A program made the translations under genes and the position numbers. From Mytilus edulis (lineage: Eukaryota): a stretch of DNA of 64,000 nt. The stretch spans positions 46,500,001 to 46,564,000 of the forward strand of contig NC_092345.1 in the NCBI RefSeq assembly GCF_963676685.1, in the 5' to 3' direction. Below the pieces are notes generated by a model that was given only the letters and a program-made list of their open reading frames with translations, was not told the origin of the DNA and made no database searches. Shown one piece after another: positions 5,180 through 50,600 of this stretch (position 1 is the stretch's first letter; every line of letters starts with the position of its first letter).

Positions 5180-5900
5180 ATAAAGGCAACAGTAGAATAC
5201 CGCTGTTCAAACTCATAAATCCATGGACAAAAACAAAATCGGGGTAACAAACTTAACCTGAGGGAAACGCATAAATATAAGAGGAGAACAACGACACAAC
5301 ACTACAATGTAACACACACAGAAACGGACCAAGCATCAGAAAAAATCCCACGAGAATAACAAATATAACATCAAAACCAAATACATGAATTTGGGATAGA
5401 CAAGTACCGTGACACGTCTTATCGCAATGTCAATTTACACTCAAAAATAAGAGAAAACAAACGACGCAACGTTAAATTGTAACACACATAGAAACGAACT
5501 ATAATATAACAATGGCCATATTCCTGACTTGGTACAGGACATTTTTATAGGACAAAATGGTGGGTTGAACCTGGTTTTGTGGCATGCCAAACCTCCCACT
5601 TTAATGGCAATGTTAAATATAATATTGAAATGACAACATAATATTACAGGACTACAATACAAATAAATAGGAGAACGTATTAGACAAAGAAACACATGAT
5701 TAATGAATAACAAAAAGCATCAGGTTTAAAATTCAATACGCCAAAAACGCGCCTCGTCCACACAAGACTCACCAGTGACGCCCAGATATAAAAGATCGAA
5801 AGCGAGAAAAAGTGCAAAGTTGTACAGCACTGAAGATCAAAAGTTGAAAAAGGTTGTGTCAAATACGGCTATGTTTCTATGCTTGGGATAAGAACATCCT
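5180..5900 (-). repeat. Composite interspersed repeat: PLE-type 3' sequence plus a degenerate hammerhead-bearing unit (5740-5790)
   Basis: 5340-5440 recurs at 6470-6580 next to a PLE RT fragment. The minus strand of 5740-5790 reads cgtca-CTGGTGA-gtct-tgtgt-ggac-GAGG-cgcg, a mutated hammerhead core. Confidence 0.5.
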
Positions 5901-6656
5901 TATTATTAAAAACAATTAATGCTATTGCAAACAGTAAATATTATCAAATGAATATAACATGTATAACAGATATACATAATGAAACTGAAGTATTAACTCG
6001 AGCTCATTACATAAAACAAACACGAATACATAATGCAAATACCAACACAGAATAGACACACCCGACTCAGTCCAGGCCTCAACGCAGTAAATTATGAAAA
6101 TGACGTCACATACGATGGTGAAAAAGGCATTAAAAATTACGTCAATTTGAATATATGAAATTTCTGACACAGCAGAAAAATGACGTCATATATGAAAAAC
6201 TACTCAAAAGTAAGATAGAATTAGGATTGATTAAAGATTATAATAGAACTAAATACTGATATTGCATTTAAACACAATGCATATTGCAATACTTATTGAT
6301 AGCAATTAACTATAATATATATATATATGTCCAGTTTGTTATGAATCCAACTTCAAACGTAAATTATCGTACAGATTACGTTGACCAAAATTAAATCTAA
6401 TAAATGACGGCGGTGATTAATTTTTCTTTCCATAACACATAAATATAATAGAAAAGACGTCAACACATTTGACAAAATCCGATGAGAATTACAAATATAA
6501 CATTACACATTTAAACTAAATACATGAATTTGGGATAGACAAGTACCGTAACACGTCTTATAGTAATGCGAATTCACACTCGGCAAAACAGTCACAATCG
6601 GGAATAAGTCACGTTTGGTAATTAAAAGATTAGACGACATAATGACAAACCACAAT

Positions 6657-15800: not shown

Positions 15801-18800
15801 ACAGGAACTACAATATGAAAAAAGCAAAAGATTCTGATACTTTATAGAAGTAGCATCATATAAGATTAACCATTTTTCGTAAAGCTTATGCTATATTGTA
15901 CTGCTTTCAAAACAGCCAAACCTTTCAAGGATTGCGTTCAATCCAGCATTAGAATGGGAATACATTAAGAAGATATTTATCTTTCATTTATAGTACAATA
16001 AAAACTGATAATGGAAATGGGAAATGTGTCAAAGAGACAACAACCCGACCAAAGAGCAGATAACAGCCGCAAACTATCAAGAAATGCACAACTTTTCCGA
16101 ATGATTTGAAATACAGACATATTGGTCGGGTTGTTGTCGCTTTGACACATTCCTCATTTCCTTTCTCGATTTTATAATGATATGATGCCCTAATGTTTTG
16201 GGTCTATTAAACATAACTAAAAAGACTTTAATACAAAAAACGGGGGAGAAAAACATACTGCGGGTATAAAGGCGATATAGTGTTTTTATCATTAATATAT
16301 TCACCTGATAATAATAGCTGCTATCACCTGATAATAATAGCTGCTATCTGTATTGTATCTTTTCAGGAGTGTAATTTACTAAATGACAGCACAGAATGTT
16401 GCGATTCAAATTTCTGTAATGATAACCTACGTACGTTTTCTTTTCCTTTCTTTATTATATTACAATTAATGTCTATTGACGTTTTATGTTGATTTTTGTA
16501 CATACGAATCGTTTTTGGTCAATACCGTTTACCATGTACTCAGCGATCAAATTTTATTATAACATTACACGTAAAACGTTAGCTAAAATATCTTTTAAAA
16601 AACGACTAAATTCCCTTATTGTGTTGTTTGTCTAACGAAAGGACTAGATTTAACAAATCAAAAGTACACATCATGAACGGCATGCATTGAACCAATTTTC
16701 TACATTATCTTTCATAATAGTTATCAAAGGTACCAGGATTATAATTCTTTACGCGTTTCGTCTACATAAGACTCATCAGTGACGCTCATATCAAAATAGT
16801 TATAAAGCCAAAAAGTACAACGTTTAAGAGCATTAAATACCCGAAATTTCAAAAAGTTGCGCCAAATACGGCTAAGGTAATCTATTTCTGGAATAAGAAA
16901 ATCCTTAGTTTTTCGAAAATTCAAAGTTTTGTAACAGTAAATTTATAAAATTGACCATATAATTGATATTCATGTCAACGCCTAAGTGCTGACTACTGGG
17001 CTGTTGATACCCTCGGGGACGAAACGTCCACCAGCAGTGGCATCGACCCAGTGGTGTAAATAGTTACATGTATCAAAGGTACCAGGATTATAATTTAATA
17101 CGCCACACGCGCGTTGCGTCTACATAAGACTCATCAGTGACGCTCAGATTAAAATAGTTATAAAGCCAAACAAGTACAAAGTTGGAGAGCATTAAATACC
17201 AAACATTTCAAAAAGTTGTGTCAAATACGGTTAAGGTAATCTATTCCTGGGATAAGAAAATCCTTAGTTTTTCGAAAAATTTAAAGTTTTGTAACAGTTA
17301 GAAAAAATCGTTTAAAACCGAATATTTGAAAGCAAAATATGTATAAGAAATAAGACAGTTTAAGCGCTTATAAATCTGTGTAATTCAAATACATAATTTC
17401 TTTGGATTTTTTTTAACTAGAGATTCCAGTTTTTAATCTCTATGCCCTCTATGGAAACTGATCTGGTTGAGGTATCTGTAAATGTTAGTATTCTGGTATT
17501 CATTTTAGCTTGCAAAGTAAGACTGAACGATAATCCAGTTCTAAGTATACCATACATAAACCAAGATGGAGATGTGAAATTTAACTGTACATTTAGGAGT
17601 TCAACATCTAGGATGGACGTTGTGTACAAAGTGTCATGGACTGTAGATGGTCACCCTTTAAAAAACAGAAAAGGAATTGATGAAGTTACTTTATTAAGTT
17701 CATACGAACGCGTTGCTATTTTAGATGCATACAATCTTAATGGAAACCTTAATAAAATGGTATATTATCACATTATAAAACCGTATAAGACACTTTTTAA
17801 ACAAGCATGCATCGTAAAGGTGTAATACCACCAAAATCATAGTATGTAACATCCAGTTGCAAACAACAAAGGGTTGAAAAATATTCTCTTTAACTTGACA
17901 TTTCGTTGCAATAAAACATTGCTTGGTCATAAACCTATACATGTTTCAAAGCATCATCTAAGTTTTAATTGTTGTTTCTATAGAATAATTTGGAAGCTTG
18001 AGCTAACATGGTTCATGAAGCTTCTTCAAAAAGTGCAATTTTACGAAGAATAATAGCGGAAAATAAATGGTGGTATGACACCTAAACGAATTAAACTTTT
18101 ATAAGCCTGGTACCTTTGATAACTATTAGTATGTCGAAATGACCTTTTGTATTGTTTATAGTGTATTTCTCTATCCTGGATGTTCTTGCATTTACTTTTA
18201 TTGTAATCCTGTCACGTAATGTTGTCATTTTAGTGTTAATTTAACATTGTTATGAAAGCGCGAGGTTTTCCTAGCCACAAAACCAGATTCAACCCACCAT
18301 TTTTTTTTTAAATGTCATGTACCAAGTTAGAATATGGTGGTTATTATCTTATAGTTCGTTGCCTTTATTTTTACCGAAAGTATGATATGAACACATCCAC
18401 GTCAATGAGACAGTCACTAAGCGATAGAAACTACTTTTATTGTCAATAAGAAATTAACACGTTGTCTTTGACAGCGGCTGGTATTTAAATTTTGACTTAA
18501 ATCGCACAATATGAATATTTAACAAATACTATTAGAGATCTACCATCATCTCCACATCTTGACAAAATTCAGTAAAATATTGTAAAACACTACCACTTAC
18601 GAGTTTCCTGATTTTGGACAGGTACATTCGAACTATAAGAAAATTGTTGAAATTTCAACCTATTTAAAAATAGATTGGTTGAATTGAAAATTGAACATAC
18701 CACATACCAGATATACAACAAAATCAAGGTTCTTTGATCAATGTGATTTTACAACAACAAAAAATTAGGATATTATGTAATTTTAAATATTGAAATCTAA

Positions 18801-21800
18801 AATTTAGCACTTTATCATCAATTCTCTACTACATATTGAATATAATTTAAGCTCCGGTGTAAGGTTGAACCACAGTGTAGTATTGGTGATCCCTTACCTG
18901 GATCACACAGTAATGGCTACTGGGTAGGAATAAAGGTAAATATTGACAAACATTTAGTTGATTAATTTATCTTCCTTGCTTAGCTGCATGTAGCAAATAT
19001 TAGGCGATATTTAGAACGACTGGGCATTACTAGTTTTGATAATAAAAAAATCGACTTTAAAAGAATTGGAAGAAAGCTATACACAATATGACAATATTTG
19101 AACAAATAATATTACGTTTCAGCTGTATGAAGTGAAGAGATTATGGGAGAAGAAAAGCAAGGAAATTAACACCAAAACGAAAACAATAATTGTAGACAGT
19201 TTCTACTGCTTAATTTATAAAGAACACAAACCTCTTACGTCGAGTACAATTAAGCAATATGAAAATATGTTCAGTTTATTTTCACTATCTTAAATGGGCG
19301 TAAGGTAAATTCTGTCCCATTACATTATTAGAACAAATTGATACCTTTCAATAATTTCAAACAATTTTTACTGAACAAATATTAGTTGTACACAAAGGCA
19401 ATGATATCTTGCCGGGTGTTGTAAATTAAGTACTCATTTCATTCATCATTTGCTTCTACAGGTATCCCCACAAAGAATATCTCATACAGTAGAACAGAAT
19501 ATAACACTGGTATCAACATTGCCAGTAGTCAGTAGTGATGGGTTACATAAACTATATGTTGGTCCACAGATAGAGAGTACAGGTATTAATGATTACTAGT
19601 TAAAACGTCGTAAAAATGTCAAATTGATAAGAGATGAAGGGATATAAGCCACTGAAATAGCGACACAACAACACAACAATACCAAAACGACATCAAGAGA
19701 TGATCAAATGATCAGCAACAACAAACATATGTCTATTTATTATGTTGGTCTCTAAATTACCCGGGTTTAATAATGAGATGCTACTCAACATGCTCAATAT
19801 ATTCCATTCAATGCCCTTTTGACCCTCAATAGAATTATAAAACTATAATAAAAATAACTAATGACTAGGTTCCTGTTTTGGAACCAGCCATTTAAATGAT
19901 ACGGAGTAAAAGATTACTAAATAAGTATACCAAACTTTTGATCTCTTGAACAAGATGTTTTTGTTCCCATCAGACTCATCAGTGGTACTCGATTTAAAAA
20001 GTGTTAAAGGCAAGATTTGATAATAATTCGAAGATCATTGCAACTTCAGGTAAAGTGAAGATCGTGTTGTTTTCCCGTTCTCTATGTAGCTTCATCTTGT
20101 AAAGCAATGGGTAAATTCATAAATTCACTTTCGATAGAAACAAAAAGAACAGAATTTCCATTTTAACAATTAAACTGATATATGAGGGAAACGATGAAAA
20201 ATAGCACCTTTAATCACTTTTAAGGCCATAAAATAGTGAATATAAAATTGAGAATAGAGTAGATAACAGCAGAAGGTCACCAATACATACTGTTTGTGTG
20301 GCACAAAAATGCTGCCTACAGTAAAATTCAGAAGCTAAATGAATTAGTAAGGAAATTAAAATAGCAAATTTCCGCTGCTGATGATAAACAAGTTATATTA
20401 TCTATTTCAGGTCAGAATTTAACTGCGTGTAAATACCCTTTTGAATGGGATCCGTTTACTAGAAAGTACATCAGTACGATACCTGTTCATATTCTGCCAC
20501 ACTCATTTTACAAGACTTCCGACAAGTTATTCTTTAGACAACTGAAGGATTTAAATTTTCCAATATTTCGGAACTACAATTTACCAATTGTTCAGATAGG
20601 AGTAAGTTTTCATTAACAATAACAATAATACAATTGAGAAAAATAACACTACAAAAAAGACTAAATGCATACATTTGTTCATCTTTATAACAATTAACGT
20701 TTTCGTATAACCTAAACAGAAATATTTAGCATAACAGAACAGCATACCACACCTGCAATATAAAAGAACAAACCATACTATGTTTGTTCCCATAGGCGAT
20801 AATCAAATACGTTTTTTAACATTTAACATAGAACTGACTATTTTTCGTAGTATTCTTGTATGAGATGAAAGTTAAAAATAAACATTTTTTAATTTAAATA
20901 TACACTCATACATATATTTTAAAAACAAACTAATCGAAAATACCATCATATTAGAAATTGGTACACATTAAGAGCCTAAAATTTCGAAAGATTTGGCCAA
21001 ATATAACTGACATTTGACAGATACTATAAATAAAATATTTTATATCATCTATGCATATTAATTTGAACTTTGGACTTTTCAAAGAGCTACATGGCCAACC
21101 ATGATGTATCCCATAGGTGTGAACTTAAGGAAGGACATGTAAACGTGTTTGACAACTTGTAAGCATTTACTTACCATTTTAGGAATATTACAAATAATTT
21201 CTTATATGAAGAGGGATATCATAAAGTCTATGCAAATACGCCGTTTTAGATTCAGAAGTGTCGGAAGTGTCATTGTTTGTATATGAAAAAGAAAATTACG
21301 TCATGACAGACGTTTAATTTCAAGTATTTAAGACGTTATTAGCTAATCCTAACGTTTTTGCATCATAATCTGAAACGACGATTTCATCTTAACAAATTAA
21401 TTCAATGAAACGAATTACACCATTAAACTTGAGGGTATGAATAGAATTACATATAAGAGTATAATGAGCGATACAAAATAACAATTAAAAAAGGATTTTT
21501 TAAAATGTGAAGAATACAGAAATAAAGAACCCATTATGACTCTCACGCTTAACAAGTGAGTTATTTCAGTAAAAACAAATTGCCGATCTGCCTATCTTTT
21601 AAACAGCAAAACTCAATATCTCCCCTTACAAAATTTATTATATGTAGTTAACCTGTGTCATCGCATTGTTAAGAGAAAAAACATGTTTGGTGTATTATGT
21701 AGGATGGAGGGTTATTTCGCTGTGTTAAGGACCTATTTGTTAACTTATGTTTTTTTTTTTGGCTCTTTGACATATATCCCATTTCCATTTTCAATTTTAT

Positions 21801-24800
21801 GATGATTCTTCATGTAGTACATTGAATAGCCAGTTGAAGGTTTTACATAGATATCTAAATACATTTGGAATAACCATTTACGCGTAGTTTTACATAAACT
21901 CACTTGAGTCTCTCCGACTAAGTTTAAAAAGACTTAAGTAAGGAAATACGAAAGGAACACGATCCTACATGCAGTACTTACAGTCATTTCAAATTGTAAT
22001 TTAACATCACTGTTTGCTAAATCAATTTTATTTGTGTTTTATTTTTTTTTTAATTTTTAGGAAAATAGATGAGACACTAGATGCCTCAGCATATTCATAT
22101 TTAGAACTTTACAAAACAACTTCCACACCCACGATTGAGGTAAGTATATTAGAACCTAGCAATAATTTACCATAGTTTTACGGATTTTTCTTTATATCAA
22201 GTACCACTGAAGCAAACATTACGTCAAGAACTTCGACTTTATCTGTTCCTAATTATTACTTTGATGTCACGGAATATTTATGTTTCAGTAACAAATAGGA
22301 AGAAAACATTTGCCAATTGAATGTAGCTTAACAACTGTTACTCATTACATCCTCCAGGGCATCTGAGAAGTAAAGAAAGTGGTTCCAATTACAAATCGTA
22401 AAATTAAGAGAATCTTAGATGGAAATATCAAATGTAGAACATTATAAATAATGGTTAATGCTAACGAATACAATTGTGTTAGTATTTATTATCAGCTGTA
22501 ACACTAAGCAATTACTTAATACACATGTATCCTTCATTTTAAATAAACGTTAGAACAATTTACTGTGACAATTCATTTATATATCACTTTGTCAGTAAAT
22601 GTATCTCATAAAATACACAGGTCCAAGTAAAAAGACAACCTTGTGGCAATAAAAACTGCTCTTGTGCAATCATTGTTCGTGAAGGGAACGACGCCGTACA
22701 AATAGATACCTGCGGGCAGACAACATCAATTATCCCAGAAGTTACGTATTTATCAAACACTTCGGAAAAACACATGAGCATGCACCAAACAGATGACGGA
22801 TTATTTTTTCGCGTGAGTAAACTATTAGCATTGTTTTGTCATGTGTATTTACAATTGCGGCAGTTTTACGAACGCTTATGACAATCTGAGTCGGTTCTTT
22901 ATATAGTACTTTCATTATGTTAAATATGCATTTACGCTGTGAACTAAACTTTCAAAAAAGTAATTAACACATAAGCATTATTCCTGTAAACTACTTGTAA
23001 GTACACTTTTTTTCCAACTGCTATGGTAGTTAATCGTATTTAATAAACTCATCATAGATACCAAGATTAAATTTCGTATTTAAGCCAGACGCGTGTTTCG
23101 TCTACAAAAGACTCATCAGTGACGCTCGAATTTAAAAAAGTTAAAAAGGCCAAATAAAGTACGAAGTTGAAGAGCATTGAGGACCCTTACAGTCCACTCA
23201 AAACCTTTGTTATACGAGACATGCTAATGTTAGTTTACTTTTTCTTTAACATTGTACATGTTATATAAAGGTTATCAAGCAATAGCATGGCAAAACTATT
23301 TAATTGCATTATTCTTCATCGAAAATGGCTTGAAATGTTTTTTGTAACATCCAATTACTAGTAGTATAGTACACTTATTTTCTTGTTCATTTAACTAAAA
23401 TTTACAGAATTTATTAAACGGTTATATATTAAAACTAGTGTATACATATGAGCACATATTTCACTTGAATAATACTCATTTGTTGGTTTTTGAGTTACGT
23501 TCGTCATAAATTACAGGTCACAGTATTGTCTGGTTCAAATATAACAGTAAATTTGACCGGGTCGGATCCAGACATGCATGTAGTGTTGTCGATCTTAGAC
23601 CAAGACAAGAATCCTCCTGGCGGGATTTGTGGGAATGAAACATGGTTATTTATACCTGGTATTGGAAATGTAGCAGCAAATGGTCAAAAGGAACCAGAAT
23701 TTCTTAAAGCATGGACGTAAGTATCTCATCATTACACCTTTCATTTTTTTCATTAAGTTTATTATGGCACTTGTTTTCTACATTTTTTCTACTCCTTATT
23801 TCATATATAAAGTTAAATCTTTGTTGTTGGACTTTACAAACCAGACTATTAAGGAAGTAGATTATTTATATTTTTTTTATATTATTTAATGGTTTTGTAC
23901 CGACCGAAAGCTCTGGGAAATTGTATTAACTAGGAAAGTCCCTTGTCAAATTGCAAAATCAAAAGCTCAAAAGTCGAAAATGGTGGATTAAAACCTCGTT
24001 TTAGAGCTAGCTATACCTTTCACTTATTTGACCATCAGATGAAGTATGCAACTTCTATGGATAGAATTTCATTATCTTGACAACCTTTTGTTAACAAAAC
24101 AAACAGAGATAACAGGAACAATGTCAAAAAGATGGGTACAGCAGTAAACGTTGTTTATTTTAATCACAATTAAAATAATTTAATATGTCAACAAAGAACA
24201 ACAAAATGGCATATAGACAAAACACATTAGCAAAAATAAAAAACAGGAATACAAAATATGACTATATTTTATTGGCGGAATATATAAGTACCTAGCCACG
24301 ACAACAGACTATTGCCAACAATGAACTAAACATTAAAGGTTATACTTTATAAATAAGACAAATAAAAGAACACTTTTACACGTTAGCAAGATAATACACT
24401 ACGTAAAAAACATATTTACTGAACTTCAATACCATCGAGTGTTATTTGTGAAGTTGATACGGAATATTTAAAAAAAGGTCTTCGTATCTTCCAAATAGTT
24501 TTACATAGTTTGATTATTGCGATTCATAACTGCATTTTAACTATATTACGAAATGTTAAACTTGGTATTTCGATATCCATGCCAAAGCTATAGGGTCATG
24601 TGGTATTTACAGACATTGTTGATTCGATTTTTTTCAAAAATATTAATCACAAACATTGTCTTCCAATCAGTGGAGCATACACTTCAGTGTTATCCAAAAT
24701 CTTCTCCCCTAAATGGGCCCTTCATGATGACGTGTTTTTATTTATTAACGAAATGTCCTATAAACGATATGATCAAATCAGTTGAGTTATTGAAGGTAAA

Positions 24801-28700: not shown

Positions 28701-30256
28701 TGAAAACATGTAGAACGAAAAACAAATAAATAAGCGTGCTCCCTGAGATCTGTTTCTGGTTTAAGGCACTTTGTTTGTGTTCGTGTTGTTTAGTTTTTTG
28801 TATCCTATGTCCATTATCATCAACATCAAATTATTGACTATCAACAAAGGTAGAATTTTCACTCTTGTCAACTGTCCTTGCAATAATAAGAAGTGTCAAA
28901 CTCTAAAGAGTAACACCCAACATTTTCAGAGACGCCTTAGCCAAGATTGCCAAGGCTGAACCTAATTTATTGCCTTAAATTTTGTGCTTAACAATTGTAT
29001 ATTATGTGCGTATCTGAAAATTCTTTCTCCTGGTAATAATCGTTTTTAAATTTGTAATTTACCTCTTCGCAACATGTACATCAGGATTTGCTTACCTTTC
29101 TGGAGACAAGAGATCACCCCCTTTTAATGGTTCGTGTTGCACAGTCTGTATAATATGTTTTGTGTACAATTGTTTGTTTGGTGGTCTTTTTCTTTTTAAG
29201 GCATGGCGTTGTCAGTTGTTTCGACTTATGAGTTTAAATGTCTCCCTGGTATCTTACGTCTTTCATTTCCTCCCATTAAGGATGACTTCACGTTCCATAT
29301 ACATATATATTTTTTAACAAACCAAAGCACGTTATAACCAGTGGAACAAGCTATTTGTTGTTGATACTGTAGAGGTCATGGCGATTCAAATGTACTTATG
29401 AAAATATTTTAAGTTGTAGCATAAAAAAACAGTAATAGGCAAAACAAATGGATTACCGCTTTCTTGCTTTCTTTATAACCTTTACACCGAGAATCAAAAT
29501 TTTGATATAAATAAAAATCTATAAAAAGATTTGTATGATATAATAGTTATGTACCGACCGTGCAAGAACTGTATAGTCAGTCAAGGTCGTTAAAAACTTC
29601 CATTTGTTGTTGGTAGTCATGTGGAAATCACGAACCATGCGAAAACGTTATACAAAATGTCTAGTTATATGTTAATAACTATAAGATAATTTACAGTTAC
29701 AGGAAAGACATTTTCTGTAGAAAAAGTAATCTTGAACACGAATTAGAATCATTGTATTATGTTCGACAACTAAACAATGTAGATGTGAGTCCTGTCAAAG
29801 ATCTTTTCATTATATGTATTTATACTATTTTAATATTGTTAGATGAGAGGAAACAGCAGTTGACCGATACTCAAATCTCAAAAACCAATTAAGAAGATAC
29901 ATAATATAGATACACCAAATAAAGAGCGAAATAGGTTTCGTCGACCTATTATCACTCAATTTCTTCCCGCGTCAGATTGAAGTTCTTACTTATTTGTATT
30001 ACGTCAAAACTTGTTCGAAGAAATCAATATAATCCCTCTAACCCACAACCATCTTATGCCACAACTGATTAAGTTATCAAAAACATGGAAAGCTGAACCT
30101 ATTTACTAAAGAAGCACTAAGTCAGGCCAGGCCATTCATATTTTTAAACAAAACAAAAAACGATTCTACACATGCTTTAACATTGTAAATAACTTATTGA
30201 CACTTTCTTTAATATAATAAAACAAATATATGAAATTAGAAACAGAGGTAATTGTT

Positions 30257-35600: not shown

Positions 35601-38600
35601 GGTAAGGGGACATGTACTTTTTTCAACGTGCAAAGTAGTGGGACCTGATGATTTTTCATTATCTTAATGCATGGGACATACACTTTTTTCAAATGCTTAA
35701 GTAGTAAACATTTTATTTTAATTAGCCCAAAAATACACACAAGAAACATTCAAACAGAAACAGAATATGATAAACAATTTTAGTTTTGACTGGTGTAAAT
35801 CAGCTCATCTAACTAAATTAAATATTGATCTTACAAAATTCAAGCTTATTAGATAGTTTGATTTATTGCTGTGAAATGAAAGAATTTAATTTTACAATAG
35901 GTAAAAATAAAAATAATTATATAAATTCAGATAGGCATCTTTAATTTTTTTTTATAACTTTTTCAAATCAACTTGGTTTTTCATCAAACTATACAGCTAT
36001 CTTAGATATATATTAAGCTTACTGAATCCCAGGTCATTTTGTTTTTTTGTTGTATTGCTGTCAAATTCAAGAATTAAATCAATCTAGGTAAAAAAAAAAG
36101 CTAGAATTTGCATTTCGAACAAAATAGAGATAGTACACTTTAATTATTTTAATAACTTTTTCAAATCAACTTGGATTATCACCAAACTAAACAGCTATCT
36201 TAGATATATATTAAGCTTACTGAATCCCAGGTCATTTTGTTTTTTGTTGTATTGCTGTCAAATTCAAGAATTAAATTAATCTAGGTAAAAAAGCTAGAAT
36301 TTGCATTTCGAACAAATAGAGATAGTGCACTTTAATTATTTTAATAACTTTTTCAAATCAACTTGGATTTTCATCAAACTATGCAGCTATCTTTGATATA
36401 TATTAAGCTTACTGAATCCCAGGTCATTTTGTTTTTTGTTGTATTGCTGTCAAATTCAAGAATTAAATCAATCTAGGTAAAAAAAGCTAGAATTTGCAGT
36501 TCGAACAAAATAGAGATAGTACACTTTAATTATTTTAATAACTTTTTCAAATCAACTTGGATTATCACCAAACTAAGTAGTTATCTTAGATATATATTAA
36601 GCTTAATGAATCCCAGGTAATTTATTTTTGTTGTATTGCTGTCAAATTCAAGAATTAAATTAATCTAGGTAAAAAAGCTAGAATTTGCATTTCGAACAAA
36701 ATAGAGATAGTACACTTTAATTATTTTAATAACTTTTTCAAATCAACTTGGATTTTCATCAAACTATGCAGCTATCTTTGATATATATTAAGCTTATTGA
36801 ATCCCAGGTCATTTTTGTTTTTTGTTGTATTGCTGTCAAATTTAACAATTAAATTGTAAAGTGTACTATCTCTAACTTTTTCGAACTGCAAATTCTAGCT
36901 TTTTTTACCTAGATTTATCTAATTCTTAAATTTGACAGCAATTCAACAAAAAAACAAAATGACCTATGATTCAGTAAGCTTAATACATCTCTAAGATAGC
37001 TGCATAGTTTGATGCAAATCCAAGTTGATTTGAAAAAGTTATAAAAAAAATTAAAGATGCCTATCTGAATTTATATAATAATTTTTATTTTTACCTATTG
37101 TAAAATTAAATTCTTTCATTTCACAGCAATAAATCAAACTACCTAATAAGCTTGAATTTTGTAAGATCAATATTTAATTTAGTTAGATGGGCTTATTTAC
37201 ACCAATCAAAACTAAATTTGAAGGTCAAGACTAGTCGAGAATGTTAAAATGATTGTCAAAAACATTTATATCACAATAAATATTGTTGCTTTACGTTATT
37301 TAAGGTACAGATTGTGTTTTTATTCACTCAATATATTCATGATATTCATGGGACACATACTTTTTTTAATGAATAGAGGTCATGGGACATAACTGTTTTT
37401 CCTATCACATCAGCATGACACAATACTTTTTTCCAAACAGGTTTTGGGATTTGCACCGGTCCCCCCTGCTTGATAAATATTGCACCGTCCCTAACGAAAT
37501 CTATTCAGAATATTTCACCGATTTTAAAGTACAAATGTATATTATAAATGCAAACTACCTAATCATATTTAGGAGGCTGTCGTATAATAGTTACAAGTAT
37601 TCGAGTATTAGCAATAATAGGATTCAAAAATATTACACGACCTTGACATCATTTTTTATGTCATAGCCAAGAGTAAGATTTAAAGAAATCTTTTGCGTTT
37701 ACAAATCATAATTTATGAATTTTACCAGCAAGTTCTATTGCTAAGGTGTAACAGTCTCTATATGGAGGCATTTCGATAAAGAAAACGAAAAATTCAGAAA
37801 AAGGTTTGTCGGTTATATCTTGTACGTAAACCTGTAGGGGGAAGCGTTACACCCCAAACAGGAGTGTATCAGTATTAGTATCGGATGACTTCCACATGTT
37901 CCAAGGGATTAAAAGGGGGGAAATATCTGAATAAGAACTATAGATCTACTGGTAAAGAGGAAAGACAAAATAGTAAAAACCATATTACTATTTTAAATAA
38001 ATGACAGAGAGACTTATATTTTAGCATTTTACAGGGTCAGGCGTTTCTCTAACTTCTTTTGACATCTTAAATCTCGATCCATTTGAGGTGTACTGATTGA
38101 TAATTTGGTCTGGGAGAACATGATTTATTTGTTTTAGTTAAATTTTGGACATGATTTTAAAAGTTATGAGTACTTATATATCAGTGTTGTATAATTGTTA
38201 ATATATATGTTAGTTGCTCATCACAAATGCATCATTATACATTTGTCTGATAAAATCATTTATTCATTCATTTATTCATGTATAAATAATAATTCTAAGT
38301 CTAAAATATTAACCTAGTGTTTTATCAAAGGACAACGATGATTGTCCTTATCATGCTTACGTACGGTGACCTAAGTTGTTTATTTCTGTGTCATTTGGTC
38401 TCTTGCGGAGAGTTGTCTCATTAGTAATTAAACCACATCTTCCTATTTTTATAGTATGTGTACTAATTTTGTAAATATTGTAGTTTAGCTGGTTTGTCTC
38501 GAAAAAGAAATATAAAATAAACAGGATTGTTAATCTTTAAATGATTTTATTATCCTTGTTGTTGTTATATCTGTAAAATAAATAAACTCAGTAAGACAGT

Positions 38601-41600
38601 GTAACCTGTGAATGTTTCTATGGTACTAGAATACTCTTTAAATGCAAATGTCTAGGCATCTTCATTCAACACAAAGAATTTTTTTTTAGTCGCTTGCAAT
38701 AAAAATAAATCATACATGTCTCTCATGTTTCCTCGTTTATACATACATTAGAAACTGCAATGGTCCGTTTATTTACCTTAGCTTTGGATCATTGATGCTC
38801 TTCAACTCGTACTTACAGTGTAAGGATTGTATTTTATGAACTGTTTAAGACAAAACTTTAGACACCATCATTCTACACAAAGGTACATACTTTAATTCCC
38901 TTTTGTTTATACAGAATCAAAAACATACGGCGGTCATATTTGTTTCCATTGTGCACAAGTGGAACATCCAGGAAAATGTAACCAAATAACTTTATGCGGT
39001 CAAGGTCAAGTATGTAATTATTGGGTCTTTTGTTCTTCCTTTACCATGCTTGTTACTTCCCTCAATACATTTACAATTTAGCCTTTTTTATGTTTTTTAT
39101 TTGAACATCAGTGATGAAAATTTTTTGGCAGAAATGAAAGTATTTCGCACAATATTATAATCCTGGTATCTATGATAAATTTATTTACCTTATAAGTTCG
39201 ATCTTTGAATAAGTATTTCTCTTAGAATCGTACTAACGTCAAACCATTTACAATAATATCAACTGTTCATTATTACGATTCATTCAAAGAATATGAAGCC
39301 GTCTATCCAATTGAATCTGATACATACACATTGAAAATATTCATATAAAGCTTTTTCTACGTATGACCGATTGGGACATTCTATTGTTCAAATTTCTCAT
39401 TTCAAACTTGACACTTCTCTTTTCCATATAAAAATAAAGGTCACCGTATGGCCTTCAACAATGAACAAAATCCATATCAAATAGCAAGCAGTAGAGGCTC
39501 GAAATGATAAATGTTAAACAAAATCAAATGTGAAAACTAACGGCCTGATTTATGTATACAACAAAAAATGAAAAACAAATATGCTATACAGTAACAGATG
39601 ACAACCACTGAATTACAGTGTCCGGAATGTGGACATGCACATTAAGAATGTGACGGGGATAAACGTGCTTGTCGTCAGTTAACCCTTCTTCCGACATGGG
39701 ACTGTGGTGAAATAGCACAACATACGAACAAACTTAATAATTCGTTTGAAAAGGCCGTTACTTATCAGTTCGATACAGATAACTAGACAACTATAAGAAA
39801 AACGTAAAACACAAAGTACAGATCTGAGAGTAATGCCATAAAATTATTTTCAAGCTTAAAACAACAAATAAACACGTTCTTACGACTAATATATCATTTA
39901 GTTCACATCCAGCATCCAATATATGCTACATGACATCGTCTTATTGTCGCTAGAGCAATCAAACAGCTACCACTAGCTACCACTAGAAGAACGGCATATT
40001 TCAAAAGGAGTTTTCGGTAGTAAATATTCATTATTAATTTGACACTTTTTATGCCATCATACCTTTGTTTACCGTTCTGGAAAAGCTGTATCACATGATT
40101 AAAGGTATGTTCGATTTTTCGTAGCCACGTCCTACTATTTCTATGGTTTTCCTATCAATACTTACTTCTCATCAACGAAGTTTCACTTGTTATTGACAAC
40201 ACAACAGTTGACACAAGTGGAACAGGCGTAACTTATCATAGTGTTGTCAGTTTATTTTCAATCTTTGAGTTTGACTGTCACTCTGGTATTTTTCGACCCT
40301 CTTTTTTATCCTTCCTAAATTAATGAGTTATGAGTGTATTAATTTATATAGATATCTAGGTAAAAAATAACAATGAATAATCATGTAAAAATAATGAAGT
40401 TAAAGGAGTAGAATTAATATGGTATATGCGCCACTGATGATTCTTATGAAGATAAAACGAACGACGGCGTCTTGTGTATCGAAATGCAAGCATTGTATCC
40501 TTACTGATTTTGTTTACCATTATAACTGTACATTTAAATTAGAATGTTTTTTTAATCATTTTGCAGTCTTGTAAAGTGGTCCAATACATCAACATGTTTT
40601 CCAAGAGGCCGAATTACAGTTCCGGATGTGAGGAACGTGACGTAAGATCATACATCTATTTCTTTTTATTAAAAAAATTGATTGTTAGTAAGAACGAATT
40701 AAAACAATGATGATCTTTTATGTGAAATTTACTGTTTAGAACGAGTTTTAACTGATAAGTAGGAACAGTATTGCGAAGTCACATTGACTTCGCAATTGTT
40801 ATTGTCTCCGAATAATGAAGTTTTCTGAATTAGTTCATTTTAAACGTCTAGGAAAGAATTCAGAAATAATAGAATTGGAGAAAGACAAAGATCTGGAACT
40901 TCATAAATATTGCATCATATGAGATTAACCGTTTTTTTTGTAAAGCTTATACAATATTGTACTACTTGCAGTAAAAGCTAAACATTTCAAGGATTGTGTT
41001 CAATCAAGCTTTGGAAGATGATAATAACTTCAATGTATAGAACATACCCTCAAACTATCAACTTTTTTGAATGATTTAAAATGCAAACATAATAATATGG
41101 GAAAAAAACCTACTGATACTGGCTATATAGAGTTTTTATCATTAATACATCCACCTGATGATATTAGCTGCTATCTGTATTGTATCTTTTCAGGAGTGTA
41201 ATTTACTAAATGACAGCACAGAATGCTGCGATTCAGATTTCTGTAATGATAATCTACGTACGTATTCTTTTCTTTTCTATATTATAAAAAAATAAGTGCT
41301 GTGGTATGACTACCACATACATTAATTATCAAACGAATCGTATATTAGTACATATAGGTCACCGTATGGCTTTTCATAATAATAAAAAAAAGTCACCCTG
41401 AAGTGAAAAACGAAAAACAAATAAGGCCTGATTTATTAAAAAAAAACATTGGACTAAGCCATTGAATTTTAAGATCCATACTTGAAACAGACATAATTGT
41501 GAATGTGCGTGGTTCATCTTTTTGTGAGTGCTCATTCTACCCCTCAATCGTTCTAATATAAATACAAACGACAGAAAGAGCCAATCTGTGAATAATTACT

Positions 41601-44600
41601 CTTACAATATATTTCCAGTTAAATTAATGTCTATTGACGTTTTATGTTGATGTTTGTACATACGAATCGTTTATGTTCAATACCGTTTACCAATTATTCA
41701 GCGATCAAAATTTATTATAACATAACACGTAAAACGTTTATGTGAATCAATAGCTAAAAATATCTTTTAAAAAACGACTAAATTCGCTTAGTGTATTGTT
41801 TGTCTTCAGAAAGGACCAGTTTTAATAAATGAAAAGTACACATCATAAATGGCATGCATCGACGATATTTTCTACATTATCTTTCATCAGAATCGTTTAA
41901 AACCGAATATTTGAAAGCTAAATATGTATAAGAAACAAGACAGTTTAAGCGCTATCGAAACAACTTAAATCTGTGTTATTCAAATCCAAAACTTGATTAC
42001 TGTTTTTTTCTTCTTTGGAATTTGTTTAACTAGAGATCCTAGTTTTTAATCTCTATGCCTTCTATTGAAACTGATCTGGTTGAGGTATCTGTAAATATTA
42101 GTATTCTGGTATTTATTTTAGCTTGCAAAGTAAGACTGAACGATAATCCAGTTCTAAGTATACCATACATAAACCAAGATGGAAATGTGAAATTTAACTG
42201 TACATTTAGGAGTTCAACATCTAGGACGGACGTTGTGTACAAAGTGTCATGGACTGTAGATGGTCACCCTTTGAAGAACAGAAATGGAATTGATGAAGTT
42301 ACTTTATTAAGTTCATACGAACACGTTGCTATTTTAGATGCATACAATCTTAATGGAAACCTTAATAAAATGGTATATTATCACATTATAATATCTTATA
42401 AGACACGTATATGCGTCGTAAAGGTGTAACACCACCAATCATCAAGTATGTCACATCCAGTTAAAAACGACAAAGATTTGAAACATATTCTCTTAAATTT
42501 GACAGTTGTAGGCAATTAACTCTACATTTCATTGCAGTAAAACATTGCTGGGTCATAAACCTATACCTTGGGTGTTTCAAAGCATCATTTAAGTTTTACT
42601 TGTTGTTTCTATTGAATAATTTGAAGGCTTGAGGTAACATGGTTCCTAAAGCTTCTTCAAAAAGTTCAAATTTTACATTGACCAATAGCGGAAAATAAAT
42701 GGTGGTATTACACCTAAACGAAGGAAACGTTTATAAGCCTGTTACCTTTGATAACTATTAGTATGTCAAAATGACCTTTTGTATGGTTTATGGTGAATCC
42801 TGAATGTTTTTGCTTTTATTTGTACTGTAATCCTGTCACGTAAGGTTGTCATTTTAGTGTTAATTTAACATTGTCATGAAAGCGCGATGTTTTCCTAGCC
42901 ACAAAACTAGATTCAACCCACCTTTTTTTCTAAAAATGTCATGTCCTAAGATAGAAAATGGCAGTTGTTATCTTATAGTTTGTTTCTGTGTGTGTAAAAT
43001 TATCGTTTTTTTCATTGGCGCACTTCTATGTTTCTGTTGTTTCGTTCTTTTCCTCTTGTGTCTGATGTGTTTCTCTCGGTTTTGGTTTGTGGCCCGGATT
43101 TTTTTTCTCTCAATCGATTTGTGAATTTCGAACAGCAGTATTCTACTGTTGCCTTTATATTTACCAAAAGTATGATATGAACACATCCACGTCAATGAGA
43201 CAGTCACTTAGCGATAGAAACTGCTTTTACTTTCAATAAGGAATCAACACGTCGTCTTTGACAGTGGCATGTAGTTTAAATTTTTGCCTTAAATCGCACA
43301 GTATGAATATTTAACAAATACTATCAGAGATCTACCATCATCTCCACATCTTGATAAAACTCATTAAAATATTGTAAAACACTACCACTTACGAGTTTCC
43401 TGATTTTGGACAGGTACATTCGAAGTTTAAGAAGATTGTCGAAATTTCAACTTATTTAAAAATAGATTGGTGGAATTGCAGATTGAACCAACCACATACG
43501 AGATATACAAAAAAATAAAGGTTCTTTGATCAATGTGATTTCACAAAAAAATGAAAAATTAGGATATTATATAATTTTAAATATTGAAATCTAAAATTTA
43601 GCACTTTATCATCAATTCTCAACTCCATATTGAATATAATTTAAGCTCCGGTGTAAGGTTGAACCACAGTGTAGTATTGGTGATCCCTTACCTGGATCAC
43701 ACAGTAATGGCTACTGGGTAGGAATAAAGGTAAATATTGGCAAACATTCAGTTGATTAATTTATCTTCCTTGCTTAGCTACATGTAGCAAATATTAGGCG
43801 ATATTTAGAACGACTGGGTATTACTAGTTTTGATAATAAAAAAATCGACTTTAAAAGAATTGGAAGAAAGCTATACACAATATGACAATATTTGAACAAA
43901 TAATATTACGTTTCAGCTGTATGAAGTGAAGAGATTATGGGAGAAGAAATGCAAGGAAATTAACACCAAAACGAAAAAAATAATTGTAGACAGTTTCTAC
44001 TGCTTAATTTATAAAGAACACAAACCTCTTACTTCGAGTACAATTAAGCAATATGAAAATATGTTCAGTTTATTTTCACTATCTTAAATGGGCGTAAGGT
44101 AAATTCTGTTCCATTACATTAATAAAACAAATTGATACCTTTCAATAATTTCAAACAATTTTTACTTAACAAATATTAGTTGTACACAAAGGCAATGATA
44201 TCTTGCCGGGTGTTGTAAATTAAGTACTCATTCCAATCATCGTTTGCTTCTGTAGATATCACCACAAAGAATATATCATACAGTAGAACAGAATATAACA
44301 CTGGTATCTACATTGCCAGTAATCAGTAGTGATGGGTTACATAAACTATATGTTGGTCCACAGATAGAAAGTACAGGTATTTAAAATGATTACAAGTTAA
44401 AACGTCGTAAAAATGTCACATTGATAAGAGATGAAGGGATTTAAGCCACTGAAATAGCGACACAACAATACCAAAACGACATCCAAGAGATGAACAAACG
44501 CTCACCAACAACAAACATATGCCTATGTATTATGCCGGTCTCTAAATTACCCGGGTTTAATAATGAGATGCTACTCAATATATTCCATTCAATGCCATAT

Positions 44601-47600
44601 TGACCCTCAATAGAATTATAAAACTATAATAAAAACAAGTGATGACCAGGTTCCAGTTTTGGAACCAGCCATTTAAATCATACGGAGTAAAAGATTATTA
44701 AATAAGTATACCAGACTTTTGATCTCTTGAACAAGATGTTTTTTGTTCCCATCAGACTCATCAGTGGTACTCGATTTAAAAATATTAAAGGCAAGATTTA
44801 ATAATAATTCGAAGACCATTGCAACTTCAGGTAAAGTGAAGATCGTGTTGTTTTCCTGATCTCTATGTAGCTTCATCTTGTAAAGCATTTGGGTAAATTC
44901 ATAAATTCACTTTCGATAGAAACAAAAAGAACAGAATTGCCATTTTAACAATTAAACTGATATGTGAGGGAAACGATGATAAATAGCACCTTTAATCACT
45001 TTTAAGGCCTTAAAATAGTGAATATAAAATTGAGAATAGAGTAAATAACAGCAGAAGGTCACCAATACATATCGTTTGTGTGGCACAAAAATGCTGCCTA
45101 CAGTAAAATTCAGAAGCTAAATGAATTAGTAAGGAAATTAAAATTGCAAATTTTCGCTGCTGATGATAAAACACGTTATATTATCTATTTCAGGTCAGAA
45201 TTCAACTCCGTGTAAATACCCTTTTGAATGGGATCCGTTTACTAGAAAGTACATCAGTACGATACCTGTTCGTAGTCTGCCACACTCATTTTACAAGACT
45301 TCCGACAAGTTATTCTTTAGACAACTGAAGGATTTAAATTTTCCAATATTTCGGAACTACAATTTGCCAATTGTTCAGATAGGAGTAAGTTTTCATTAAC
45401 AATAACAATAATACAATTGAGAAAAATATCACTTCAAAAAAGACTAAATGCATACATTTGTTCATCTTTATAACAATTAACGTTTTCGTATAACCTGAAC
45501 AGAAATATTTAGCATAACAAAACAACATACCACACCTGCAATATAAAAGAACAAACCATACTATGTTTGTCCCCATAGGCGATAATCAAATACGTTTTTT
45601 AACATTTACCATAGAACTGACTGTTTTTCGTAGTATTCTTGTATGAGATGAAAGTTAAAAAAAAACAATTAAATTTAAATATACACCCATACATATATTT
45701 TAAAAACAAACTACTAGTAATCGAAAATACCATCATATTAGAAATTGGTACACATTAAGAGCCTAAAATTTCGAATGGTTTGGCCAAATATAACTGACAT
45801 TTGACAGATACTATAAATAACATATTTTATATCATCTATGCATATTAATTTGAACTTTGGACTTTTCAAAGAGCTACGCCAGCCATGATGTATTCCATAG
45901 GTGTGAACTTAAGGAAGGACATGTAAACGTGTTTGACAACTCGTAAGCATTTACTTACCATTTTAGGAATATTGCAAATAATTTTTTATATGAAGAGGGA
46001 TATCATAAAGTCTATGTAAATACGCCGTTTTAGATTCCAAAGAAGTGTCGGAAGTGTCATTGTGTGTATATGAAAAAGACAATTACGTCAAGACAGACGT
46101 TTAATTTCAAGTATTTAAGACGGTATTAGCTAATCCTAACGTTTTTGCATCATAATCTGAAACGACGATTTCATCGTAACAAATTAATTCATAGATTTTT
46201 TTTAAGTAAAAAAAAATGTTTTAAGTAAAAAAAAAATGAAACGAATTACACCATTAAACTTGAGGGTATGAATAGAATTACATATAAGAGTATAATGAGC
46301 GATACAAAATAACAATTAAAAAAAGATTTTTTAAAATGTGAAGAATACAGAAATAAAGATCCCATTATGACTCTCACGCTTAACAAGTGAGTTATTTCAG
46401 TAAAAACAAATTGCCGATCTGCCTATCTTTCAAACAGCAAAACTCAATATCTCCCCTTACGAAATTTATTATATGTAGTTAACCTGTGTCATCGCATTGT
46501 AAAGAGAAAAAACATGTTTGATGTATTATGTAGGATGGAGGGTTATTTCGCTGTGTTAAGGACCTATTTGTTAACTTATGGGTTTTTTTGGCTCTTTGAC
46601 ATACATCCCATTTCCATTCTCAATTTTATGATGATTCTGCATGTAGTACATTGAATAGGCAGTTGAAGGTTTTACATAGGTATCTAAATACATTTGGAAT
46701 AACCATTTACGCGTTGTTTTACATTAACTCACTTGAGTCTCTCCAACTAAGTTTAAAAAGACTTAAGTAAGGAAATAAGAAAGGAACACGATCCTACATG
46801 CAGTACTTACAGTCATTTCAAATTGTAATTTAACATCACTGTTTGCTTAATCAATTTTATTTGTGTTTTATTCTTTTTTAATCTATAGGAAAATAGATTA
46901 CCTTTCTTTTCACTTTAAAGACAAAGAAAATTTAACTCTATTGCCTCTCTTTTTCTCTTTTTAATAGGACACTAGATGCCTCAGCATATTCATATTTAGA
47001 ACTTTACAAAACAAATTCCACACCCACGATTGAGGTAAGTGTAATAGAACCTAGCATTAATTTACCATAGTTTTACGGATTTTTTTTTTATATCATGTAC
47101 CACTGAAGCAAACATTACGTCAAGAACTTCTACTGTATCTGTTACTAATTATTACTTTGATGTCACGGAATATTTATGTTTCAGTAACAAATAGGAAGAA
47201 CAAATTTACCAATTGAATGTAGCTTAACAAATCTTACTCATTACATCCTCCAAAAGAGGGACGAAAAATACCAGAGGGACAATCAAACTCATAAATCGAA
47301 AACAAACTGACGACACCATGGCTAAAAATGAAAAGGACAAACAGACAAACAATAGTACACATGACACAACATAAAAAACTAAAGAATAAACAACACGAAC
47401 CCCACCAAAAACGAGGGGTAATCTCAGGTGCTCCGGAAGGGTAAGCAGATCCTGCTCCATATGTGCCCCCGTCGTGTTGCTTATGAGATAACAAATCCGG
47501 TAAATAGTCCAATTCGGTAGGTCACATTTATGAAAGGGAAGTGGATTGTAGTTACGACGTAAGGAACATATCTAATATCATTTGTGAAACGGTTATTCCA

Positions 47601-50600
47601 TAACGGCCAACCAACTCGTGATGGCGTCCGTAAAATTTACGAAGAGATGATTTCAACTTCACCGTTTGGAACTCTTTATTTAATAGCTTCCTTGTGAGCA
47701 ACAACCCTCTATCAAGAAAATCATGATAGGAAATGCAAGCACGGGAATATCGTATCAATTGGGAGATATATACACTGTGCAGGTGCTGCTGGAATAATGC
47801 TACTTAGAAATGGAAAGTTCACAATTGGAAAGCTGAAATCCTCTCTTTTGTCGTAAAGTTTTGTTTTCAATCGACCATCATTGTAAATTTCTAGATGTAA
47901 GTCAAGATATGAGGCCGACTTAGCTGTATCTGTTGTATCCTTTATCTCTAGTTCAATGGGATAGATGCATTCGACGTAGTCACCAAATTTTGAATTATTT
48001 AGTGAAAGGCATCTGCGAAGTAAAGAAAGTTGTTCCAATTACCAATCGTAAAATTAAGAGAATCTTAGATGGAAATATCAAATGTAGAACATTATAACTA
48101 ATGGTTAATGCTAACGAATACAATTGTGTTAGTATTTATTATCAGCTGTAACACTAGGCAATTACTTAATACACATGTATCCTTCATTTTAAATAAAACG
48201 TTAGAATAATTTACTTCGACAGTTCATTTATATATCACTTTGTCAGTAAATGTATCTCATAAAATACACAGGTCCAAGTAAAAAGACAACCTTGTGGCAA
48301 TAAAAACTGCTCTTGTGCGATTATTGTTCGTGAAGGGAACGACGCCGTACAAATAGATACTTGCGGGCAGACAACATCAATTATCCCAGAAGTTACGTAT
48401 TTATCAAACACTTCGGAAAAACACATGAGCATGCACCAAACAGATGACGGATTATTTTTTCGCGTGAGTAAACTATTAGCATTGTTTTGTCATGTGTATT
48501 TACAATTGCGGCAGTTTTACGAACGCTTATGACAATCTGAGTCGGTTCTTTATATAGTACTTTCATTATGTTAAATATGCATTTACGCTGTGAACTAAAC
48601 TTTCAAAAAAGTAATTAACACATAAGCATTATTCCTGTAAACTACTTGTAAGTACACTTTTTTTTCAAACTGATATGGTAGCTAATCGTATTCAATAAAC
48701 TCATCATAGATACCAAGATTAAATTTTGTATTTAAGCCAGACGCGTGTTTCGTCTATAAAAGACTCATCAGTGACCCTCGAATTCAAATAAGTTAAAAAG
48801 GCCAAATAAAGTACGAAGTTGAAGAGCATTGAGGACCCTTACAGTCCACTCAAAACCTTTGTTATACGAGACATGCTAATGTTAGTTTACTTTTTCTTTA
48901 TTATTGTACATGTTATAATGGTTATCAAGCCATACCATGGCAAAACTATTTCATTGCATTATTCTGCATCGAAAATGGCTTGAAATGTTTTTTGTAACAT
49001 CCAATTACTAGTAGTATACACTCATTTTCTTGTTCATTTACGTAACTAAAATTTACAGAATTTATTAACCGGTTATATATTAAAACTAGTGTATACATAT
49101 GAGCACATATTTCACTTGAATAATACTCATTTGTTGGTTTTTGAGTTACGTTCGTCATAAATTACAGGTCACAGTATTGTCTGGTTCAAATATAACAGTA
49201 AATTTGACCGGGTCGGATCCAGACATGCATGTAGTGTTGTCAATCTTAGACCAAGACAAGAATCCTCCTGGCGGGATTTGTGGGAATGAAATATGGTTAT
49301 TTATACCTGGTATTGGAAATGTAGCAGCAAATGGTCAAAAGGAACAAGAATTTCTTAAAGCATGGACGTAAGTATCTCATCATTACACCTTTCATTTTTT
49401 TCATTAAGTTTATTAAGGCACTTGTTTTCTACATTTTTTCTACTCCTTATTTCATATATAAAGTTAAATCTTTGTTGTTGGACTTTACAAACCAGACTAT
49501 TAAGGAAGTAGATTATTTATATTTGTTTTATATTATTTAATGGTTTTGTACCGACCGAAAGCTCTGGGAAATTGTTTTAACTAGGAAGGTCCCTTGTCAA
49601 ATTGCAAAATCAAAAGCTCAAAAGTCGAAAATGGTGGATTAAAACCTCGTTTTAGAGCTAGCTATACCTTTCACTTATTTGACCATCAGATGAAGTATCC
49701 AACTTCTATGGATAGAATTTCATTATCTTGACAACCTTTTGTTAACAAAACAAACAGTCATAACAGGAACAATGTCAAAAAGATGGGTACAGCAGTAAAC
49801 GTTGTTTATTTTAATCACTTTTAAAATGATTTAATATGTCAACAAAGAACAACAAAATGGCATATAGACAAAACACATTAGCAAAAATAAAAAACAGGAA
49901 TACAAAATATGACTATATTTTATTGGTGGAATGTATAAGTACCTAGCCACGACAACAGACTATTGCCAACAATGAACTAAACAGTAAAGGTTATACTTTA
50001 TAAATAAGACAAATAAAAGAACACTTTAACACGTTAGCAAGATAACACACTACGTAAAAAACATATTTACTGAACTTCAATACCATCGAGTGTTATTTGT
50101 GAAGTTGATACGGAATATTTAAAAAAAGGTCTTCGTATCTTCCAAATAGTTTTACATAGTTTGATTATTTCGATTCATAACTGCATTTTAACTATATTAC
50201 GAAATGTTAAACTTGGTATTTCGATATCCATGCAATAGCTATAGGGTCATGCGGTATTTACAGACATTATTGATTCGATTTTTTTCAAAAATATTAGTCA
50301 CAAACTTTTTCTACCAATCAGTGGAGCATACACTTCAGTGTTATCCAAAATCTTCTCCCCAAAATGGGCCCTTCATGATGACGTGTTTTTATTTATTAAC
50401 AAAATTTCCTATAAACGATATGATCAAATCAGTTGAGTTATTGAAGGTAAAATATTCGGATCCTCTATTGTAATTTGAAAAAAAAATACCGTCAAGGAAT
50501 CATTGGATGTTATTTTTGTTAACTTTTCAACATTTTATAAGGTATTTGATATTCATACATTTTTGTCACGATTATCACGATATCAATTTCGGATGGCTCA

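Follow-up and report, generated by a model that had tools for sequence, protein, structure and literature searches.

An RNA module common to mussel retrozymes and Naiad Penelope-like elements: a candidate signal for internal initiation of reverse transcription

The DNA analysed here (the window) is a stretch of 64,000 nucleotides from Mytilus edulis (contig NC_092345.1, positions 46,500,001 to 46,564,000 of the forward strand). Its minus strand carries a retrozyme insertion in which a compact structured segment of 64 nucleotides, referred to in the following as the module, lies between two hammerhead motifs. The features are given in the order in which this strand is read, with the empty site last:

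17305..16716, minus strand: whole retrozyme insertion of family A, 590 bp or ~1.7 units, delimited by alignment of the filled against the empty site and by the self-match of two units
17143..17100, minus strand: type I hammerhead, damaged, with the GAAA box and the cleavage triplet each changed
17059..17057, minus strand: phase of the family's insertion ends, the last copied base lying 2-4 nt before the module
17055..16992, minus strand: Naiad-type RNA module, positions 1-64 (position p = 17056 - p); from fold and pair counts a nested stem of helices P1 (4-10/55-61) and P2 (12-17/45-50), then a bulged and conserved core (19-29/37-44) ending in hairpin P4 (27-31/35-39), with tract 51-54 unpaired
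17037..17012, minus strand: core of invariant or near-invariant columns in alignments A1 and A2, with GC and U bulges; apical loop variable; likely surface of protein contact
16993..16974, minus strand: hairpin P5, 8 bp, with double changes in four of the eight pairs
16788..16750, minus strand: second hammerhead, core intact, 3' arm of stem I and cleavage site deleted
41891..41887, minus strand: empty site in the duplicated segment, without target-site duplication, 3 bp replaced

The insertion is 5'-truncated, and its 3' end at 16716 stands in the phase that is fixed for the family. The hammerhead at 17100..17143 reaches 22.6 bits with the Rfam model RF00163, below the gathering score of 34, and Rfam locally recognises only the two flanking hammerheads, both under threshold. 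The pair of intact hammerheads that is a feature of retrozymes is thus lacking, as both are damaged, and the window copy is a decayed passenger. It lies in one copy only of a segmental duplication (17398-24245 versus 42011-49896, offset 24.6-25.7 kb, 91-99% identical). Related repeats occur elsewhere in the window: solo 5'-truncated copies of family B at 23040-23180 and 48703-48830 (minus strand), which have a hammerhead and an end in the fixed phase and are devoid of the module; an older hammerhead repeat, family F, at 5713-5949 (minus strand; also at loci L063 and L182), which continues into a different 3' sequence and not into the module; and fragments resembling the 3' end of the Naiad element N1 described below (47252-47357, 57326-57427, 62032-62131, 29169-29268 and 40243-40305). 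In addition, 35924-36869 holds five copies of a ~195 bp unit that are 71-96% identical to a reference copy.

The sequence and coordinates of the motif given in a preliminary description of this DNA (minus strand, 16992-17055) proved exact, and its portrayal as a GC-rich island was borne out, with 59% GC in the module against 31.5% in the window, a value reached by 0.03% of 64-nt windows. The minus strand folds at -28.7 kcal/mol (z -3.38; none of 200 shuffles was as good), and the minimum-energy fold contains the closing stem, the GAUGCC/GGUAUC helix and the GGACG/CGUCC hairpin that had been proposed. Since the plus strand folds equally well (z -3.51; one of 200 shuffles), energy alone cannot choose the strand. 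Reading the plus strand as a hammerhead (CUGUUGA...GAAA) was rejected because GAAA is found only in the loop of family A. Just 3' of the motif lies a second hairpin, P5, which the preliminary description had missed; its loop is UUAG in the window copy and UUCG in most family copies, and it is confined to retrozymes, being absent from Naiad N1. The word CAUGA follows it (16974-16970) and recurs downstream of the module in Naiads. No Rfam family matches the motif, either in the whole window at the gathering score or locally at E <= 10, and searches with the module of the window, of four related loci and of N1 gave only noise (E >= 0.88). Viral contigs yielded no match to one module pattern. What had been described as a conserved structured RNA of the retrozyme unit, on the hammerhead strand and absent from Rfam, can thus be upheld as such.

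The module recurs in five related families, of which A, B, C and E were obtained by searches of the source genome together with one metagenome scan and G from other records. They consist of tandem units of 341-369 bp with low GC and a type I hammerhead (matches to RF00163), and each unit carries the module 37-51 nt after the hammerhead. We take these families to be probable mussel non-LTR retrozymes on the basis of unit size and ribozyme type, a comparison made at the level of such features rather than of direct identity to published clones. In a comparison of families A, B and C, conservation along the unit peaks in the module (20-nt bins 0.65-1.0 identical), with 0.7-0.8 in the hammerhead and 0.3-0.65 in the rest. 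A covariance model run over 1 Mb of arbitrarily placed stretches in search of diverged families gave 27 matches. Hammerhead arrays of family D are without the module, as are tandem arrays of ~545 bp with a family C-like hammerhead (L181:5300-9960 and L219:2000-5930); the latter are probably served by another helper. At loci L226, L238 and L256, parts of the module are repeated internally in tandem, which may reflect slippage on the template at this structure.

Transcripts of such units are present in RNA run X24, in which 6,804 reads fall on one unit and 568 reads join unit end to unit start, a kind of read in which circle and tandem are indistinguishable. The strand bias over the module is 4-5 to 1 (a Naiad 3' UTR has about 1 to 1) and would, for a library of the usual dUTP kind, indicate the hammerhead strand. 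Read beginnings and ends did not pile up on the retrozyme in X24, nor did they at the known hammerhead site, and the run is hence uninformative on cleavage.

The preliminary description regarded the motif as part of the retrozyme unit; it is not specific to retrozymes, being common to Naiad Penelope-like elements (PLEs). In the mussel genome the element N1 forms tandem units of 3370 bp with frames of 1000 codons, many copies of which keep the frame open at 96-97% identity to the query; N1 is thus a very young family, and an active helper is probably present. One frame encodes an N-terminal GIY-YIG domain (135-172, E 0.04) and a C-terminal RVT_1 domain (645-854, E 8e-5), both under the Pfam cut-offs, and the protein has a Zn-finger-like motif and the CxC, GPKY (GxKF/Y) and DKA motifs that are diagnostic of Naiads. 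No hammerhead core was found by pattern on the sense strand of the 3370-bp unit. In nine arrays the module is present behind every one of the 11 internal tandem junctions, where it begins three bases after the fixed 3' end, and behind none of the nine terminal ends. It is identical to the window module at 55 of 64 nt, and a model built from retrozymes only (R1) scores the N1 junction modules at 81.5-82.1 bits. Indeed, when five monomers were compared with the N1 unit, the module was the only strong similarity (E 7e-12 to 5e-20; next best E 0.001), which in family A extends ~20 nt upstream of the junction. RNA reads over the module of the Naiad junction number only 2-3, with one pile-up of seven molecules at 1751 that probably comes from retrozyme reads.

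The module can likewise be recognised in published Naiads. In the available part of the supplement of PMC8557442, which holds 54 Naiad families, a word search followed by pairing by eye placed it in at least 12 of the 54 consensuses, from bivalves, hemichordates and a fish; the search covered close versions, diverged ones in another 39 of the 54 lying outside its reach. An 11-nt word of the core occurs 11 times in these records, ten times at the record start (two oysters, an ark clam, three mussels, three hemichordate elements and one fish) and once behind a pseudo-LTR, while a shorter word adds, among the matches listed, at least a third oyster and three Acropora corals, whose versions share the core and have an enlarged P4 loop. 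The 5' core word, as the search word, is invariant in these Naiads by construction; a 9-nt word of the 3' core, searched apart from it, occurs nine times. In the 11 Naiads paired by eye, P1 keeps 6-7 of seven pairs and P2 5-6 of six, with many double changes (one record starts inside P1), and an extra hairpin sits at the 18-19 bulge in three of the published elements. Judged from these sequences, the outer helices P1 and P2 carry compensatory changes.

Variation among retrozyme copies was compared in two alignments, both hand-chosen across families: A1, with 73 of 117 parsed copies (65 distinct), and A2, with 32 rows; 12 overlapping or self loci were left out of this comparison. In A1 double changes affect one pair of P4 and four pairs of P5, and N1 adds further ones in P2 and P4. 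The changes that A1 records in helices P1 and P2 are one-sided; they create or remove G.U pairs and so speak for the hammerhead strand. Based on these pair counts and on the published Naiads read by eye, the fold is a nested, bulged stem and not a pseudoknot. RNAalifold preferred a third pairing (columns 21-26 with 59-64), which was rejected because it shows no double change and conflicts with P1, a helix that covaries in Naiads.

The preliminary description had instead seen a pseudoknot, in which GCUG pairs with CAGC across the GAUGCC/GGUAUC helix. The complement itself exists, but 4 bp are no more than chance would give (42% of 20,000 linker shuffles), and in the window the closing stem takes up the last two of its bases. 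A knotted fold, be it an HDV-like start, an exonuclease block or a new catalytic knot, could draw on the commonest family form, where the crossing complement reaches 7 bp (P about 0.004 in linker shuffles), on a C-to-U change at position 52 that keeps a G.U crossing pair in families E and G, on G9-to-A in 8 of 23 E copies, which breaks a P1 pair that the knot leaves open, and on a double change at 25:52 in one copy (overlapping loci L004/L005). In A1, 92.6% of the crossing cells are paired. None of the six crossing pairs, however, shows a double change in the 65 distinct rows of A1 or in A2, and the helix is broken in all seven family G copies, in N1 and in the window copy. In the 11 published Naiads read by eye it is complete in one, retains five of six pairs in four and 2-4 of six in six. 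Moreover, a G-to-A change at position 55 in five published Naiads keeps the pair with U10 and breaks that with C22, and position 56 changes together with position 9 in oyster Naiads. Since positions 55-56 follow the closing stem and the crossing helix is rarely complete, these data argue for the nested stem rather than the knot, to which we give only the slightest chance.

The classes of RNA that the knot had called to mind fare no better. HDV-like ribozymes form a nested double pseudoknot with P1.1 between a conserved L3 and a GG after P1, and exonuclease-resistant xrRNAs have a conserved pseudoknot that forms a ring. In the module the counterpart of L3 is a freely variable loop, the helix is not followed by GG, and the crossing helix expected of either class is not conserved; the HDV clan of Rfam gave no match at E <= 10. 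The HDV-like, nuclease-block and new-ribozyme readings of the preliminary description thus found no positive support.

Retrozyme insertions have a fixed 3' end next to the module. Ends were surveyed in 100 arbitrarily placed 10-kb stretches (1 Mb) with a filter of >=80% identity and >=60 bp, which drops the hammerhead-only matches of family D and those of family F; 16 overlapping or self loci were also left out. The 3' ends fell between -9 and +3 from the first base of the module in 42 of 50 filtered and 54 of 89 unfiltered matches, against an expected 3.7%, and in 70 of 96 motif-queried loci, while the 5' ends did so in 0 of 50 and 6 of 96, respectively. Measured from the module, the median offset was -2 to -4 in nearly every family and set (A, B, C and E, with G taken from motif-queried loci); measured from the hammerhead cut, it was 34-49 nt across families. 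The insertion end tracks the module, not the hammerhead. No clustering of ends was found at the 3-7 other TATT words per unit. The loose ends that X24 reads show at the junction are heterogeneous, at -4 and -2. Of the motif-queried copies 77 of 96 exceed one unit, as do 9 of the 50 random ones. For N1, 29 of 42 3' ends in the random sample lie in the same window of -9 to +3. An RNA cut, or a cue at the DNA level beside the module, might also determine where the fixed end lies.

The retrozyme unit can thus be described as a hammerhead plus about 90 bp that match the Naiad tandem junction, and copies of both elements end just before the module. We consider it probable that the module is an RNA signal which lies 3' of the start site, loads the Naiad reverse transcriptase (RT) for internal initiation and was captured by the retrozyme. 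As expected of a cis-element for RT recognition, it is common to an autonomous and a non-autonomous element at the insertion end, and its structure is conserved. Of the three guesses in the preliminary description, an RT-recruiting or priming signal accordingly fits best, in view of the shared module, the shared fixed end and the conserved helices. The Naiad endonuclease would nick AT-rich DNA, and the Naiad protein would hold the module while cDNA synthesis starts internally on the U-rich stretch 5' of it, 2-4 nt upstream (17057..17059, presumably the start phase, which is read through in this internal copy). The module would thus not be copied at first and would reach the genome only when the enzyme runs round an RNA circle or through a multimer. 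Such entry would explain why most solo copies are without the module and why Naiads need a tandem or pseudo-LTR arrangement to stay mobile; the mechanism also fits the 5'-truncated solo copies that lack it (e.g. 23040-23180) and the copies longer than one unit. The RT of Poseidon PAc is a direct precedent: it initiates internally at sites that match genomic 3' ends, and it depends on RNA located about 55-60 nt beyond the start in the 3' direction (available text of PMC11167929).

Other functions must be weighed against RT loading. The stretch could mainly be an internal DNA promoter at the start of the Naiad body, e.g. a Pol III B-box, kept by the retrozyme for its transcription, which otherwise lacks an explanation. 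The module indeed stands at the Naiad 5' start, where PLE promoters sit (PMC8557442, in part), a B-box-like word occurs once per monomer and inside the module in all five families, and Schistosoma hammerhead repeats, which are SINEs, appear to be transcribed by Pol III (PMC6765202, in part). We nevertheless hold a promoter to be unlikely, as compensatory pairs in P1, P2, P4 and P5 together with tolerated hairpin insertions point to a structure in RNA, the B-box-like word is absent from six of the 11 Naiad versions read, an A-box is by eye not conserved in families E and G, each monomer contains 1-5 sense-strand runs of five or more T, ARAGORN called no tRNA gene in six loci, and the fixed 3' end would go unexplained. 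A tRNA-derived SINE head with a Pol III type 2 promoter was rejected on the B-box, the tRNA calls and the T runs.

An RNA cut just 5' of the module, by self-cleavage or by a host nuclease such as RNase P and followed by ordinary target-primed reverse transcription (TPRT), would place the fixed end where it is and replace the hammerhead that Naiads, in the available text of PMC8557442, do not have in canonical form; a near-invariant core with bulges and a P1 of 7 bp would suit it as well. Yet full-size retrozyme circles are abundant in mussels and only the hammerhead cut is reported in vitro (PMC7229834, in part), the 5' ends of copies show no excess at this phase, many copies exceed one unit and so run across the junction, and the ends scatter over about 8 nt, so that we find such a cut quite unlikely. 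The more specific proposal of a new class of small self-cleaving or protein-assisted ribozyme, distributed from corals to fish, which would cut just 5' of itself, replace the Naiads' hammerhead, define their 3' end and stay inactive in retrozyme circles until the Naiad protein binds, appears very unlikely to us. Finally, the retrozyme may have inherited the Naiad junction as a relic in which the module has no current role. The decay of the window copy and the resemblance of retrozymes to PLE pseudo-LTRs by descent (bioRxiv 10.64898/2026.07.22.740005, in part) could be read in this way, but across three families no other part of the unit is as well conserved as the module, whose bins lie above those outside module and hammerhead, and retrozyme ends still track it, which renders a relic highly improbable.

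RT loading by a shared RNA has parallels elsewhere. The 3' recognition structures of LINE/SINE pairs and of R2, the epsilon element of hepatitis B virus and telomerase RNA are cis-acting RNA structures that recruit a reverse transcriptase. As in the LINE/SINE partnership, the RT-recruiting structure considered here would be common to an autonomous element and its parasite. The LINE/SINE and R2 signals, in contrast, lie 5' of the start and are copied first, whereas the module would lie 3' of the start and work on circles or multimers; unlike telomerase RNA, which has a conserved pseudoknot, the module has none. Binding of R2 RNA is also treated in PMC6765202 (in part).

Among hammerhead elements, the non-LTR retrozymes of Mytilus galloprovincialis (Cervera and de la Pena 2020, PMC7229834) have units of ~350-390 bp, and PLEs were proposed as their helpers. 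They are alike in forming several related families of tandem units of similar size with a type I hammerhead, and the available text neither describes a second conserved RNA module, a fixed 3' end or a specific helper nor contains the word 'pseudoknot'. Naiads as described by Craig et al. (2021, available text of PMC8557442) agree with N1 in the N-terminal GIY-YIG, the Zn-finger-like, CxC, GPKY and DKA motifs, the C-terminal RT, the tandem units (of 3.4-4.4 kb) and the lack of a hammerhead; in that main text neither 'stem-loop' nor 'hairpin' occurs, and the module or a link to retrozymes is not described. Poseidon PAc (Frangieh et al. 2024, PMC11167929, in part) is similar in starting inside RNA downstream of a hammerhead and in its AT-rich targets, but it belongs to another clade, starts in an AC-rich stem-loop inside the ORF and has two start sites versus the one cluster seen here; its binding element is neither defined nor shown to be conserved in the available text. 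Retrozymes have also been viewed as non-autonomous PLE derivatives that share sequence with PLE termini and hijack PLE enzymes (Li, Clavereau and Pollet, bioRxiv 10.64898/2026.07.22.740005), in a work that is centred on vertebrates and on Xenopus pLTRs and leaves the mechanism open; the terms mussel, hairpin, stem and secondary structure are absent from its available text. The borrowing of PLE enzymes by retrozymes has therefore been suggested before, as a proposal in PMC7229834 and with arguments in the latter work. In the literature consulted we found no mention of the module, of a fixed end in mussel retrozymes or of a Naiad helper for them; such a mention may exist in subscription journals, in Repbase notes or in supplements. 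What would be new is an RT-recognition RNA that an element shares with its parasite and that, unusually, lies 3' of the start.

These observations bear on two questions: the identity of the enzyme by which animal retrozyme circles are copied into genomes, and the way in which a Penelope-like RT, a relative of telomerase, chooses a start inside the RNA. With a helper and a 64-nt signal both become testable using one protein and one short RNA. The helper named is a hammerhead-free Naiad and not one of the hammerhead-bearing clades that one would guess. A signal that lies behind the start and is lost from single copies would also offer a simple reason for PLE tandems and pseudo-LTRs. In practical terms the module can serve as a marker of the 5' boundary in Naiad annotation and, if portable, could program insertion from circular RNA.

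Some minor observations concern the Naiads and their surroundings. In a distant family, N2 (loci L310-L339), which has a fixed end of its own, this end is followed by a closing stem together with a GGA...UCC hairpin and, behind the latter, CCG; the example at L325:1452-1530 folds at z -3.1. This look-alike was detected neither by the HMM nor by the covariance model and is misplaced by plain alignment, and the pattern that matches it (0 of 20,000 shuffles) was chosen post hoc; we treat it as a lead. The YAUGA word stands after the module in retrozymes (window 16970-16974) and in most Naiads read. It is followed in Naiads by a GACGTC word and in several of them by a TATA-like box (in N1 129 nt after the junction; L301, about 1800-1860), which are not seen in retrozyme units. 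In the 3' UTR of N2 (L270, about 2860-2940) a GC-rich stretch is conserved among copies and is possibly another structured RNA.
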